64,000 bases of DNA from Pedobacter sp. UBA4863 (GTDB lineage Bacteria; Bacteroidota; Bacteroidia; Sphingobacteriales; Sphingobacteriaceae). Where the stretch lies: contig NZ_DHDZ01000036.1 in assembly GCF_002399615.1 (NCBI RefSeq), forward strand, positions 66,091-130,090, written 5' to 3'. Shown one piece after another: positions 20,221 to 24,098 of the stretch. The position numbers and the translations under genes were made by a program. Under the pieces are notes generated by a model. The model was given only the letters and a program-made list of their open reading frames with translations. It had not been told where the DNA came from and did no database searches. The first letter of the stretch is position 1. The number at the start of each line of letters is the position of its first letter.

Positions 20221-21942
20221 ATGAAAATGATTAAGAAGAACATAGCCTTGGCCACAGGTTTATTATTGATGGGTAGCACTGCCTCATTTGCGCAAAGTTT
20301 AGCTGATGCTAAGAAAGCGATTGATGCTGAACAATATCAAAAAGCAACATCGATGCTAAAAACATTGGTGGCAAACCAACCTAAAGTAGGAGATAACTAT
20401 TTTAATTTAGGTAAAGTTTATTTATTAACAGATGATATCGACTCTGCAAGAGCAGCTTTTACCAACGGAACTACTGCCGAGCCTAAAAATGCTTTGAACT
20501 ATGTAGGTTTAGGCCAAGCAGATTTAATTGATAATAATGCAACCAATGCTAAAACAAATTTTGATAAAGCGATTAGCTTTAAAGCAAAAGATTATGCAAC
20601 TTATTTAGCCATTGGTAGAGCTTATATAGATCAAAAAAATGTTGATTATGCACAAGCATTGCCAAATTTACAAAAGGCAGACGAGTTAGATTCTAAAGAT
20701 AAAGATCCTGAAACTTTCTTGGCCTTGGCAGATTTTTATGCCATGCAAAGAAAAAATACAGAGGCGTATCCTATGTACCTGAGAGCTTTAGATATTAACC
20801 CTAATTTATATAGAGCTAACGTACAAATTGGCAAGATGTATAAAGACGCTTTTGCTTTTCCAGAGGCAGAAGCTGAAATTAAGAAAGTAATTGCTGCAGA
20901 CCCGAATTACGGCCCTGCTTACAGAGAGTTGGCAGAAACTCAAATGCAGTGGTCTTTTGCCGATCCTAAAAATGGTGAGGCTAAAAGAACCGAAGCTTTA
21001 GAGAACATGAGAAAATATCTAGACTTAACCGATAAGTCTTTTGACTCTCGTTTACGTTACGCCCAGTTTTTGGTATATGCCAGTGATTTTGCAACTTTAG
21101 AGAAAGAAGTTGCTACCTTAAATGCACCAGATGCCAATAATCCTAAAACCTTTGTGGTAATTAGAATGAGAGGTTATTCTGCCGTTGAGAACAAAAACTA
21201 CGAGCAAGGTATCAAATACATGAACGAGCTATTTGGTAGAACTCAAGATGCTGCTCGTATCATCGGTTCAGATTACTTGTACTTGGGTAGAGCGCAGCAA
21301 AATTTAGGGCAAGATAGCTTAGCGTTTATTAATATAGCTAAAGCAGTTAAATTAGATTCTACTAAAGTAGATGCACTTGCCGAAATAGGAAAGAAATTTT
21401 ATGAAGCAAAGAACTTTCCTAAATCTGCGGAGGTTTATAGCAAAGTAGTAAATGCTAACTCTAAAGATCCTAATATTGCAATGAACTACTATTATTTAGG
21501 TGCATCTCACTATTTTGCTTATGCTTTTGATGTTAGGGATAATAAAAATCCGACTAAAGATGCATTAGTAAAAGCAGATACAGCATTCTCAAATTTAATT
21601 AGATTAGCTCCAGACTATGAGACAGCTCATTTATTTAGAGCACGCATAAACAAAAATTTAGACAATGCTGAGACACCAATAGGACTAGCAGTGCCATTTT
21701 ACAGTAAATACATCGAGTTGGTTACAGTATCTAAGCCAGAAAAAGCTGCAGCAAGCAAAACAGGTCTGGTAGAAGCTTATAATTATTTAGGAGCATTTTA
21801 TGCAAATACAGATAAAGAAAAAGCAAAAGAGTTTTTTAATAAAACTTTAGCACTTGATCCTCAAAACGCATTAGCGTTAGATAACTTAAAATATCTAGCA
21901 GGCCCGGCCACGCCAGCAAAGAAAACACCTATTAAGAAGTAA
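20221..21942 (+). CDS. Secreted tetratricopeptide repeat protein
   Basis: Signal peptide (SFAQ); many TPR-like helical repeats. Confidence 0.85.
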   Translation: MKMIKKNIALATGLLLMGSTASFAQSLADAKKAIDAEQYQKATSMLKTLVANQPKVGDNYFNLGKVYLLTDDIDSARAAFTNGTTAEPKNALNYVGLGQADLIDNNATNAKTNFDKAISFKAKDYATYLAIGRAYIDQKNVDYAQALPNLQKADELDSKDKDPETFLALADFYAMQRKNTEAYPMYLRALDINPNLYRANVQIGKMYKDAFAFPEAEAEIKKVIAADPNYGPAYRELAETQMQWSFADPKNGEAKRTEALENMRKYLDLTDKSFDSRLRYAQFLVYASDFATLEKEVATLNAPDANNPKTFVVIRMRGYSAVENKNYEQGIKYMNELFGRTQDAARIIGSDYLYLGRAQQNLGQDSLAFINIAKAVKLDSTKVDALAEIGKKFYEAKNFPKSAEVYSKVVNANSKDPNIAMNYYYLGASHYFAYAFDVRDNKNPTKDALVKADTAFSNLIRLAPDYETAHLFRARINKNLDNAETPIGLAVPFYSKYIELVTVSKPEKAAASKTGLVEAYNYLGAFYANTDKEKAKEFFNKTLALDPQNALALDNLKYLAGPATPAKKTPIKK

Positions 21943-21960
21943 TTTTTATAAGTAATTAAA

Positions 21961-22068
21961 GAGGCTGTCCAAAAAGTTCGGACAGCCTCTAATTTATACA
22001 GGGTGCCTAATGGAGAAAATTTTCATACATCCGACTATGGAATAGACTTTCCTTTTTTGGACAGTCTC
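21961..22068. repeat. Inverted-repeat element/terminator (GAGGCTGTCCAAAAAG … CTTTTTTGGACAGTCTC)
   Basis: Hairpin gaggctgtcc…ggacagcctc at 21961..21989, plus a second complementary arm at 22052..22068. Confidence 0.55.
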
Positions 22069-22092
22069 CTTTATATAGAAATAAATTGTTCT

Positions 22093-22536
22093 TTAATGCA
22101 GCTTACCGGATAGAAGTTTTTTTAATTCTTCAATTTTCTTGTTTTTTCTGCAAATTTTTTCTTCGAGTTCAGTAATTCTGTGTTCTTGTTGTTGTAAAAT
22201 CGTTTGTATTAAATCATACTCACTTTGAGCAATGCTAATAGTTTTATAATGGGTGCTACTATTTGAATTATTGAAAAAAACATCAATTGGTTTTTTTAAA
22301 ATAGAGGCAATTTGCTTTAAGCGGTCTATAGAAACTTTGACAGTTCCGTTTTCAATTTTATGATAAGCACTTTGACCAATGCCCAATTGGTTAGCCATGT
22401 ACTCTTGAGTTAAGCATTTTTCATCGCGATATCTTCTTATATCCTCTAATGAAAAGTTATTGTTTCCACCCCAAATCTTTTTTAATTGTTCTCGGGATAC
22501 AGGTTCCGCATTTACAATGATTTTTTTTAACTCCAT
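22093..22536 (-). CDS. XRE-family HTH regulator with N-terminal double-glycine leader-like peptide and C-terminal coiled coil
   Basis: ATG at 22536 gives MELKKIIVNAEPVSREQLKKIWGG, then the Cro/C1-type HTH (IRRYRDEKCLTQEYMANQLGIGQSAYHKIENG…LKQIASIL) and a heptad-rich tail. Confidence 0.85.
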   Translation of the reverse strand: MELKKIIVNAEPVSREQLKKIWGGNNNFSLEDIRRYRDEKCLTQEYMANQLGIGQSAYHKIENGTVKVSIDRLKQIASILKKPIDVFFNNSNSSTHYKTISIAQSEYDLIQTILQQQEHRITELEEKICRKNKKIEELKKLLSGKLH

Positions 22537-22654
22537 TTGATTTTGCTTTATCACCTTAAAGTTAGATAAGATATATTAAAACTGTAGGAATGAATTTATT
22601 CCTGTGGCTACTTAATTCATTACAGTATAATTTTCTATCAAATGTTTTTTCGAA

Positions 22655-22662
22655 TACATTTG
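22655..22662 (+). promoter_or_regulatory. -7 promoter element for the precursor peptide gene, embedded in an 8-bp inverted repeat
   Basis: TACATTTG; TCAAATGT(22638..22645)-N10-ACATTTGA(22656..22663). Confidence 0.55.
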
Positions 22663-22736
22663 AATATGTCAGTCTATATGACATCGCCAAAGCAGTCAAG
22701 CGTGATTGAATGTATAGAGTTTATTAACTATTCAAA

Positions 22737-22988
22737 ATGTTTAAAATGAGAAAACTAACATTAAACAAGATTAACTTTTCGGGAGCCACAGAACTGACTC
22801 GCGAGCAATTGAAAAAGGTTATGGGTGGCTACACAATGATTGGTGCTGGAGGATGTAGTAGTGATAGTGACTGTGCAACTGGTCAATCATGTTGTCCTGA
22901 TAATCAAGGTGGAGGTTATATTTGCCAGTATTCAGGTATTGTTGAATTACCAAGTGGAGGCTCAGCTGTTTTGCCTTGTCAGAATTAG
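22737..22988 (+). CDS. Double-glycine-leader (Bacteroidota natural-product-precursor type) peptide with six-Cys core
   Basis: Leader …KINFSGATELTREQLKKVMGG; core with C-x5-C-x5-CC-x9-C-x17-C. Start may be the ATG at 22746. Confidence 0.8.
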   Translation: MFKMRKLTLNKINFSGATELTREQLKKVMGGYTMIGAGGCSSDSDCATGQSCCPDNQGGGYICQYSGIVELPSGGSAVLPCQN

Positions 22989-23001
22989 TTGCATAATTAG
23001 C

Positions 23002-23030
23002 AAAGGCAGGATTTGTAATCCTGCCTTTTT
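23002..23030 (+). terminator. Intrinsic terminator after precursor peptide gene
   Basis: aaaggcaggatt-tgt-aatcctgccttttt. Confidence 0.85.
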
Positions 23031-23034
23031 ATTT

Positions 23035-23042
23035 TAATTTTG
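23035..23042 (+). promoter_or_regulatory. -7 promoter element for nuoA
   Basis: TAATTTTG(CC) directly after the terminator; implies the ORF-track TTG start at 23040 is wrong. Confidence 0.6.
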
Positions 23043-23060
23043 CCACAAATCATTACAGTT

Positions 23061-23432
23061 ATGCAAGCACAAAGTACAGCGCAAGATTTTATTCCTATTA
23101 TATTTCAGGTTATTGTAGCGCTAGGTTTCGTAGTCGTTACATTGCTAGCTACTCACCTTTTAGGGCCAAAGCGAAAAACAAAAGATAAATTAACCACTTT
23201 CGAGTCGGGGGTTAAGGTAATAGGTAATGCCCGTCAGCCATTTTCTATCAAGTATTTTTTGGTGGCCATATTATTTGTGCTTTTTGATATAGAAGTGATC
23301 TTTATGTACCCTTGGGCGGTCAATTTTAGAGAGCTAGGCTGGAATGGGATTATAGAGATGTTTATCTTCATGGGAACGCTTTTATTAGGTTTCATTTACG
23401 TGCTAAAAAAGAAAGCATTAGACTGGAATTAA
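23061..23432 (+). CDS. nuoA: NADH-quinone oxidoreductase subunit A
   Basis: FESG…FSIKYFLVAILFVLFDIEVIFMYPWA motif; ATG at 23061 preferred. Confidence 0.95.
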   Translation: MQAQSTAQDFIPIIFQVIVALGFVVVTLLATHLLGPKRKTKDKLTTFESGVKVIGNARQPFSIKYFLVAILFVLFDIEVIFMYPWAVNFRELGWNGIIEMFIFMGTLLLGFIYVLKKKALDWN

Positions 23433-23555
23433 CAGGTTTGAAGCGCTTTATTTAGATTGTTTCTAAATGATGATGATAGCCTCCAATTCCTGCTAAATAT
23501 TGTAAATTTGCTGCTTGTCCTAAGTATATTCGGGCAAGCATTTTTGTTTATAAGC

Positions 23556-24098
23556 ATGAGTGATATCAAAATAGTTGAAGCGCCTCCAGGCATAGAAGGA
23601 AATGGTTTTTTTGCTACTTCCTTAGATAAAGCAATTGGCTTGGCACGTTCACATTCATTATGGCCATTGCCATTTGCCACTTCTTGTTGTGGTATAGAGT
23701 TTATGGCTACCATGGGGTCTCATTATGATTTTGGGCGTTTCGGTTCAGAAAGATTGAGTTTCTCGCCCCGACAAGCAGATGTATTGATGGTGATGGGAAC
23801 TATTGCTAAAAAAATGGGGCCGGTATTAAAACAAGTTTACCTGCAAATGGCCGAACCACGTTGGGTAATGGCAGTAGGTGCTTGTGCATCTAGCGGTGGT
23901 ATTTTCGATACTTATTCGGTATTGCAAGGTATAGACGAGATTATTCCTGTAGATGTTTATGTGCCAGGTTGTCCGCCAAGACCCGAGGCTATTTTAGATG
24001 GCTTTCAGCGCATACAAGATTTAGTGAAAAACGAATCGGGTAGAAAAAGACATTCTCCAGAATATAAAGAACTGTTGGCGAGTTACGGAATACAATAA
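23556..24098 (+). CDS. nuoB: NADH-quinone oxidoreductase subunit B
   Basis: [32 protein letters not shown]; likely start MSDIKIV at 23556, downstream of TAAATTTG at 23503..23510. Confidence 0.96.

Follow-up and report, generated by a model that had tools for sequence, protein, structure and literature searches.

The window analysed here, 64,000 nucleotides of contig NZ_DHDZ01000036.1 from Pedobacter sp. UBA4863 (assembly GCF_002399615.1), contains two divergently transcribed genes 200 bp apart, one for an XRE-type helix-turn-helix (HTH) regulator whose N-terminus resembles a double-glycine (GG) leader, and the other for a GG-leader precursor peptide. Their features, with the basis of each call in brackets and positions given along the window, are the following.

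22093..22536, minus strand: gene for the leader-HTH regulator, 147 amino acids (open reading frame, ORF; Pfam HTH_3; homolog family)
22465..22536, minus strand: leader-like segment, residues 1-24, MELKKIIVNAEPVSREQLKKIWGG (motif and profile census, family conservation, AlphaFold2)
22444..22464, minus strand: linker of residues 25-31 (NNNFSLE), joining the GG to helix 1 (alignment, AlphaFold2)
22276..22440, minus strand: XRE-type HTH_3 DNA-binding domain, residues 33-87 (PF01381)
22102..22227, minus strand: C-terminal long helix or coiled coil, residues 104-145 (AlphaFold2, weak Pfam match, family conservation)
22737..22988, plus strand: gene for the GG-leader precursor, 83 amino acids, with its likely start at the second ATG, 22746 (ORF, leader profile)
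22737-22829, plus strand: leader of the precursor
22830-22985, plus strand: six-Cys core of the precursor

The regulator is built of three parts, a leader-like N-terminus, an XRE HTH_3 domain and a long C-terminal coiled coil, ordered along the chain as MELKKIIVNAEPVSREQLKKIWGG-NNNFSLE-DIRRYRDEKCLTQEYMANQLGIGQSAYHKIENG; its translation opens with MELKKIIVNAEPVSREQLKKIWGG, reaches the GG boundary and continues with NNNFSLEDIRRYRDEKC. It belongs to the HTH_3 family, because PF01381 matches it with 48.8 bits (cutoff 23; E 7.2e-13) over profile positions 1-55 of 55, and the nearest solved structures, SinR and C.BclI, correspond to the HTH part only. We discarded an identity as a phage repressor of the RstR family (NF041951), which scores 41.9 bits against a cutoff of 80. 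At the C-terminus, the Pfam coiled-coil model PKcGMP_CC gives a weak match (E 4.9e-5), the helix is kept in the family, and from the structural model it is probably an oligomerisation module. This AlphaFold2 model, built on 16 family members, has a mean predicted local distance difference test score (pLDDT) of 73. The leader forms a short helix at residues 15-22 with low confidence (block pLDDT about 50-57) and does not pack against the HTH, residues 23-27 are disordered (pLDDT <50), the HTH has pLDDT values of 64-80, residues 90-99 make a disordered linker, and residues 104-145 form a single long helix with block means of 84-98. The same genome also encodes a leaderless paralog with the same HTH and coiled-coil architecture (contig C57 7496-7834, L040; MQTAGRKIKKFRELRNF).

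The precursor ORF begins M(FKM)RKLTLNKINFSGATELTREQLKKVMGG, its leader ends in ATELTREQLKKVMGG at the GG, and the six-Cys core follows. A leader hidden Markov model (HMM), trained solely on 23 precursors from other genomes, recognises it with an E value of 1.2e-5, and its match to TIGR04149 stays below the cutoff (19.4 vs 25 bits). We found no radical-SAM or other maturase in the cassette formed by the two genes or in the export locus on contig C8 described below. With a sub-cutoff match and no adjacent radical-SAM maturase, the TIGR04149 class of radical-SAM-modified RiPPs (peptides made on ribosomes and then modified after translation) was rejected for this precursor, and the participation of a RiPP maturase, contemplated in the initial annotation of the region, gained no support. 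These peptides look like unmodified, disulfide-bonded, class-II-like bacteriocins served by thiol-disulfide oxidoreductases, rather than strict RiPPs.

The initial annotation proposed that the HTH protein opens with a GG leader closely resembling that of the divergent precursor, and our comparisons bear this out. The 12-residue leader cores, VSREQLKKIWGG in the regulator and LTREQLKKVMGG in the precursor, are identical at 8 of 12 residues, and the former contains the V(-12), E(-8), L(-7), I(-4) and GG of the GG-leader pattern. A strict leader motif has only four matches in the six-frame translation of the 3.68-Mb genome, namely the window regulator, its neighbouring precursor and a pair of Cys-rich precursors encoded on contig C8. 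Likewise, the leader HMM places the regulator ORF fourth among 52,896 ORF segments (E 0.019), behind three true precursors, and the match ranked after it has an E value of 7.4. Curated leader models fall below their cutoffs on the regulator, with 14.3 bits for NF033383 (cutoff 35; E 0.038) and 9.8 bits for NF047798 (cutoff 23.5; E 0.93). Because the strict motif matches in four places only and the HMM ranks the regulator fourth, the resemblance is more than chance.

It is extremely improbable that the leader-like codons are untranslated 5' sequence, with translation of the regulator beginning downstream. Starts are hard to call in Bacteroidota, which lack strong Shine-Dalgarno signals, and in many homologs position -7 is Met (ATG) or a TTG-encoded Leu, usable as a start. 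In the window regulator, however, the -7 Leu codon is TTA and the first in-frame ATG, GTG or TTG after Met1 is M47, within the HTH; there is none from the GG to helix 1, so that the leader must be translated for the HTH to be complete, as had been argued from this sequence before. Further evidence against a downstream start is that residues upstream of -7 (L at -12, S/T at -11, R/K at -10 and E at -8) are conserved despite codon turnover, and that the frame is open from an upstream ATG in all the intact loci read except L015. An alternative GTG start at 22554 would lengthen the regulator by 6 residues.

The initial annotation also called for an HMM search for leader-HTH proteins and for an examination of their synteny with precursors, and this revealed a family. 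The first search gave ten homologs, 50-55% identical and from Pedobacter or metagenomes, all of which contain L[ST][RK]xE[ML]Kx[IV]xxx directly before DIRKYRDEKC, the start of helix 1, and an exhaustive profile search retrieved around 17 further metagenomic clusters (at 50% identity) with leader-like N-termini that abut helix 1; more distant HTH and coiled-coil relatives start at helix 1 and have no leader. Family matches occur in 15 of 151 sampled Pedobacter reference genomes, including three stop-interrupted copies, and several of these matches were left unread or extend over just part of the N-terminus; in reference genomes from elsewhere in the order and class, outside Pedobacter, we found leaderless relatives only. 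In all, there are about 20 homologous cassettes, nearly all from Pedobacter. In 19 of them the regulator has a divergent GG-leader precursor at an upstream distance of 112-317 bp, in one more, L005, the contig ends within the start of the precursor, and an upstream precursor was not seen in three loci (L007, L014 and L027). The peptide cores of different cassettes are not related to one another. Together, these comparisons indicate that the leader on the regulator is a family trait under selection, and not a one-off fusion.

Individual loci depart from this organization. Genome G349 contains two leader-HTH/precursor cassettes in tandem, 2.7 kb apart and with differing cores (L023 and L034). 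In genome G290, the regulator is decayed (L013/L025), with several in-frame stops and loss of the leader, next to an intact precursor, and in L015 the leader (GKTLSREELKTVFGG) is perfect except for a stop codon directly before it, so that the TTG at -7 is the sole remaining start.

The leader of each regulator tracks that of its own partner. Cognate pairs are identical at 5.28 of 9 leader positions, as opposed to 4.42 of 9 in non-cognate pairs (permutation p = 2e-4, with shared descent uncorrected), and in G349 the match reaches further upstream (regulator FEGAKELTRAEQKNVYG, precursor FADAKELTRAEMKNVMGG). Leaders come in two classes: those of the long class have about 26-28 residues and the motif LTRxQL, those of the short class 18 residues and LS[KR]xEM. 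In 17 of 18 cassettes regulator and partner belong to the same class. Long and short leaders are intermingled on the tree of the HTH and coiled coil, itself poorly resolved (10 of 23 forks open), where, for example, the long-leader regulators L023 and L034 group with the short-leader L011 and L014 (93/90 support). Recent gene conversion was rejected as the source of the leader match, because 66 of the 122 residues identical between regulator and partner leaders are encoded by different codons, including switches between TCN and AGY for Ser and between CGN and AGR for Arg. With this codon divergence, the leader sequence is therefore held at the peptide level in both genes, and not at the DNA level.

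These data also bear on the idea that the leader is an evolutionary leftover, a neutral tail that remained after the regulator acquired the 5' end of a precursor gene. The more distant relatives function without a leader, the GG is eroding in regulators, and the stop in L015 and the decayed regulator beside an intact precursor in L013/L025 would also fit such a history. We nevertheless consider it very unlikely, because the proteins, only about 50% identical overall, retain five leader positions at 83-94%, the partner match persists at the amino acid level through saturated synonymous change (the 66 of 122 codons mentioned above), and across the HTH tree the class of a leader goes with that of its partner.

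GG leaders are recognised by exporters with a C39 peptidase domain. The initial annotation suggested locating such transporters, and we found that the genome contains a single C39-ABC exporter, that is, a peptidase-containing ATP-binding cassette transporter (PCAT), accompanied by an HlyD partner on another contig than the cassette.

Contig C8, L003 5060-13867: bacteriocin export locus

The C8 exporter, which looks active, has 732 amino acids with C39, ABC_membrane and ABC_tran domains, the Cys motif QxxxxDCG at its N-terminus (QPDQMDCGPTCL) and a strong C39 match. Its locus also encodes a pair of TlpA-like proteins with a thioredoxin fold, with a Cys-rich GG-leader precursor after each of them, a plain 86-amino-acid HTH protein without leader, and a 527-amino-acid protein with C39-like (30.5 bits), VKOR and Thioredoxin_4 domains, the first of which is probably non-catalytic. 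A C39 domain is present in 14 of 15 cassette genomes, and in only one locus, that of Pedobacter sp. MR2016-19 (L004/L009), do an exporter and HlyD adjoin the cassette; this exporter is 82% identical to that of C8.

We then counted the residues at individual leader positions in 18 regulators and in their 18 partner precursors.

-12, L: 15/18 regulators, 18/18 partner precursors
-8, E (E or Q in precursors): 15/18 regulators, 18/18 partner precursors
-7, M or L: 17/18 regulators, 18/18 partner precursors
-6, K: 17/18 regulators, 18/18 partner precursors
-4, I or V (V in precursors): 16/18 regulators, 18/18 partner precursors
-2, G: 12/18 regulators, 18/18 partner precursors
-1, G: 9/18 regulators, 18/18 partner precursors

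Each of the positions -12, -8, -7, -6 and -4 is thus kept in 83-94% of the regulators, and the full GG occurs in 6 of 18 regulators, against all 18 partner precursors, and in 6 of the approximately 17 metagenomic clusters. Endings other than GG in the regulators include GE, GD, GN, GH, GQ, GS, HG, SG, LG, AE, SE and CN, and in most homologs the GG position abuts helix 1, being its N-cap. The initial annotation had reasoned that homologs lacking the leader, or not conserving its GG, would point to an isolated fusion; the leader helix is indeed kept, and the glycines are not.

The five well-kept positions can be compared with electron cryo-microscopy structures of the transporter PCAT1 with its substrate CtA, in which residues -10 to -4 form a helix that docks on the peptidase domain, -7 and -12 make a hydrophobic knot needed for affinity, and -4 sets specificity (PMC6959990). 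Substrate specificity resides in the leader alone and the cargo is not recognised, while a narrow cleft accounts for the strict GG requirement; a second, non-translocating substrate is bound but kinked at the GG and uncleaved, and cleavage is coupled to cargo insertion (PMC6959990). Set against this complex, the position counts show that the regulators keep the docking determinants and relax those for cleavage.

The distinction matters because the initial annotation envisaged a leader-sensing circuit in which the regulator would be cleaved, exported or sequestered by the export machinery. Of these, sequestration fits best, and conserved cleavage or export is poorly supported by a full GG in 6 of 18 regulators. 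In a secretion-coupled circuit comparable to those of FlgM and ExsE, the C39 domain would cut after the GG and export or destroy the regulator, thereby removing a repressor. The window regulator is unusual in having an intact GG plus a 7-residue linker, NNNFSLE, confined to it among the sequences read (a few homologs have a different insert of 4-6 residues), and this flexible segment could let the site reach the narrow cleft. The GG retained in a third of the cassette regulators and in some metagenomic clusters, the QxxxxDCG motif and strong C39 match of the exporter, and the acceptance by PCATs of unrelated cargo behind the leader (PMC6959990) are also in line with cleavage. On the other hand, the full GG is lost in 12 of 18 regulators and kept in every partner precursor, facing a cleft with strict GG specificity, and in most homologs there is no spacing between this position and helix 1. 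Besides, the cargo would be a 123-residue HTH and coiled coil, about twice the 66-residue cargo of CtA, which with 9,000 cubic angstroms already fills most of the 15,000 cubic angstrom cavity of PCAT1, where cleavage is tied to the insertion of the cargo (PMC6959990). The relaxed GG and the folded cargo speak against physical export of the regulator. Since the GG is complete in 6 of 18 regulators and in 18 of 18 precursors, cleavage or export is unlikely as a conserved mechanism, and we regard it as the less likely among the leader-dependent readings; if any family member is cleaved, the window regulator would be a good candidate.

The intergenic region offers candidate DNA sites for the regulator.

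22586..22603: putative operator O1, palindrome AGGAAT-N6-ATTCCT, 50-67 bp upstream of the regulator ATG
22608..22623: putative operator O2, an imperfect, half-site-like second copy with its centre 21 bp from O1, on the precursor side (sequence reading)
22655..22662, plus strand: candidate Bacteroidota-type -7 box, TACATTTG, of the precursor gene (sequence reading against TAnnTTTG, the consensus of this box in Bacteroidota)

A 16-bp palindrome, GGAATAA-N2-TTATTCC or a variant of it (such as GTGAATAA..TTATTCAC and CGCATAA..TTATGCG), occurs upstream of the regulator in 19 of 19 cassettes and in the precursor-less L014, at 30-60 bp from the regulator ATG across cassettes. A second, weaker copy often lies 21 bp away on the precursor side, as in L009 (7897/7918) and L014 (7889/7910). 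Allowing up to one mismatch, the palindrome occurs once in the 3.68-Mb genome, at the window cassette, and was not found in the exporter locus; an operator-like site at 14314 of L009 was rejected as an exporter-locus site, being inside a coding gene and at chance level. Given this uniqueness, the regulon is most likely just the cassette. The intergenic arrangement looks like a classic autoregulated divergent XRE switch, and from the operator position we infer that the regulator would act as a repressor and not as an activator.

As seen against G038, the closest relative sampled, the regulator and precursor genes are joined in a mobile cassette of 1 kb. Such cassettes mostly lie at a distance from exporters.

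21957..23001: two-gene accessory cassette (regulator and precursor), an insertion with respect to the closest relative (comparison with G038)
21961..21989: GC-rich hairpin (GAGGCTGTCC-N8-GGACAGCCTC) past the 3' end of the regulator gene (sequence reading; inside the inserted segment)
23002..23035, plus strand: intrinsic terminator hairpin and T-run (sequence; identical element in G038; terminator-like Rfam matches only)

The cassette spans 1,045 bp, with a terminator hairpin, the regulator, the intergenic region and the precursor, and is absent from G038, where the homologs of window positions 21300-21956 and 23002-23698 (a tetratricopeptide-repeat protein gene and the nuoA-side terminator) are only 5 bp apart. 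The hairpin at 21961-21989 is likely a terminator that arrived with the cassette, and, as deduced from the empty site, that at 23002-23035 is a pre-existing terminator that would now serve the precursor gene. We found no transposase or integrase in the cassette. The borders of the insertion (21940-21960 and 22989-23002) are AT-rich and have a common TAATTA-like string (ataagtaattaa and cataattag), perhaps the result of duplicating a short target, where the sequence of the empty site is aaataatatc.

Taking the evidence together, we tentatively favour, short of holding it probable, that the regulator is a leader mimic that docks on the exporter and thereby ties local transcription to free export capacity. 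The leader would be a flexible tether that binds the cytoplasmic leader-binding groove of the exporter, usually without being cleaved. Free exporter sites would titrate the regulator off O1/O2, derepressing the cassette; with the exporter absent or saturated with precursor, the regulator would remain on the DNA and shut down both the precursor and the regulator genes. Precursor and regulator would then compete for the same groove, so that peptide synthesis would be matched to spare export capacity, and a 1-kb mobile cassette could work with a distant exporter in whatever host it reached. In the more general form of this proposal, which we advance with slightly more reserve, the leader mimic is a sensory module and the cassette a plug-in unit of toxin and regulator, switched on only where and when a compatible exporter has capacity.

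Several points weigh against this proposal. The contact between regulator and exporter is one that we infer, and the promoter positions, and hence the sign of regulation, are guesses. The statistics on cognate matching ignore shared descent, and the tree on which the leader classes are interspersed is weakly resolved. C39 domains are present in 200 of 235 genomes of the genus, which makes the co-occurrence of cassette and exporter uninformative. Position -3 is aromatic (Y, F or W) in 9 of 18 regulators, and Met in 12 of 18 precursors, so that mimics differ systematically from substrates at a place that may bear on docking. Gly at -2 (12/18) and at -1 (9/18) is far above random in the regulators, and residual cleavage may occur in some members, the window regulator included. 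Finally, genome G320, 99% complete and in two contigs, has an intact cassette and no C39 domain detected in a Pfam search; the regulator of this cassette (L029) ends its leader in ...LSKREMKTIFGS and the precursor in ...LSRDEMKNVMGG.

This last genome would also fit a role of the leader that is independent of the exporter, either by binding to another leader-recognising protein, such as the C39-like/VKOR/thioredoxin protein of the C8 locus, or by pairing in the cytoplasm with the amphipathic leader of precursor that was not exported, whose accumulation the regulator would then sense directly. The VKOR and Thioredoxin_4 fusion does provide another C39-like domain (30.5 bits), which probably lacks catalytic activity, and direct contact between leaders also predicts partner-specific leader matching. 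However, the same Pfam search found no C39-like protein in G320 either, and pairing between leaders is not known from any other case. The conserved positions are, moreover, exactly those that touch the peptidase groove in solved complexes (PMC6959990). We consequently judge an exporter-independent leader to be quite unlikely, and keep docking on the exporter as our working proposal. In any case, the sequence comparisons show that the feature is real, conserved and selected, and that it represents a new domain combination with a plausible sensing mechanism.

Besides the putative operators, the intergenic region contains a conserved element in the 5' leader of the precursor mRNA.

22666..22712, plus strand: conserved 5'-leader element of the precursor mRNA (DNA profile, stem covariation)
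22666-22684, plus strand: hairpin P1
22685-22688, plus strand: CGCC stretch
22693-22712, plus strand: hairpin P2, with a GCGTGA loop

An element of about 100 nt precedes exactly the three GG-leader precursors of the genome (DNA profile E values of 2e-13, 1e-11 and 9e-5; next match, 0.24), with copies in the window at 22655-22712 and, on the minus strand of contig C8, at L003 9971-10090 and 11629-11750. Its CGCC stretch can pair with the GCG of the P2 loop, and CGC:GCG covaries with TGC:GCA. Rfam contains no family for this element, returning only terminator-like chance matches, and it looks like an undescribed 5' untranslated region (UTR) element of Pedobacter bacteriocin precursor mRNAs. At the start of the full-length element is GGGGCAGCACTATTGCA, which fits the sigma-54 -24/-12 promoter consensus as GG-N10-GC and lies inside a covarying inverted repeat, GGGGCAG...CTGCCCC; this start is seen at L003 10060-10095 and 11725-11760 (minus strand), and also in L015, L036, L006 and L016, and the genome encodes rpoN and three enhancer-binding-protein genes. 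In the window copy the sigma-54-like part is missing and the candidate -7 box TACATTTG takes its place, as would result from an exchange of promoters in the orphan cassette. In G349, each regulator gene also has at its 3' end, in antisense orientation, an extra sigma-54-like/5'-UTR element that no precursor ORF follows (L023 1908-1993 and L034 1904-1990, minus strand).

According to the initial annotation, GG leaders are not known on DNA-binding regulators, and in the literature searched we found no description of one, with papers on graspetides, Flavobacterium columnare and bacteroidetocins being silent on it. Little has been described on how the production of GG-leader peptides is controlled in Gram-negatives and Bacteroidota. 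The regulator leader has the L(-12)...E(-8)[LM](-7)K...[IV](-4)xGG pattern common to the substrates of the pairs CtA-PCAT1, ComC-ComA and LahA-LahT, and an exporter of the cognate type, with HlyD, is encoded in the genome; its helix is predicted to cover -10 to -3, much as in the CtA-PCAT1 complex. Unlike in those systems, in which the cargo is a small peptide, it precedes a folded DNA-binding protein, and its glycines are not conserved in the family. Like SinR, the RstR family (NF041951) and C.BclI, the regulator combines an HTH_3 domain with a helical part for oligomerisation at the C-terminus, a palindrome as operator at its own promoter and pairs of sites two helical turns apart, but none of them has a leader-like N-terminal extension. 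Bacteroidetocin-type loci likewise encode unmodified, Cys-containing GG-leader peptides of Bacteroidota (PMC6671954), although here each cassette has a core of its own, with no relation to the others; Coyne et al. 2019 mention no regulator or helix-turn-helix protein for those loci (PMC6671954). The nearest published idea is that HetC, a PCAT of Nostoc, processes a regulatory protein or peptide substrate (PMC10986499), a hypothesis without an identified substrate or a leader-bearing DNA-binding protein.

If our proposal is true, the cassette would represent a very economical, one-protein solution, in which a single groove would both select cargo and determine how much regulator is free; pheromone circuits of three components, as in Firmicutes, were not seen here. 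It would explain how scattered orphan toxin cassettes are coordinated with a single distant exporter and, in practical terms, could provide a portable, leader-addressable transcriptional switch and a genetic read-out of leader-exporter recognition. It would also extend to ABC peptide exporters the control that secretion machines exert on the genes of their own substrates. FlgM, for sigma-28 and flagellar export, and ExsE, for type III secretion in Pseudomonas, are regulators that carry the secretion signal of the apparatus whose substrates they control, and the Pedobacter regulator likewise has a leader-like N-terminus that matches those of the cognate substrates. However, FlgM and ExsE, which are anti-sigma or partner-switching proteins, physically leave the cell through type III systems, whereas here the signal is on a DNA-binding protein, the machine is an ABC peptide exporter, and docking is favoured over export. 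The proposed logic is the same as that of Mlc-PtsG and MalT-MalK, where regulators are held at idle transporters, and of flux sensing by BceAB-BceS, in all of which transporter occupancy sets the free regulator. Those systems use dedicated surfaces, whereas the cassette regulator would use a copied substrate tag, resulting in competition for one site.

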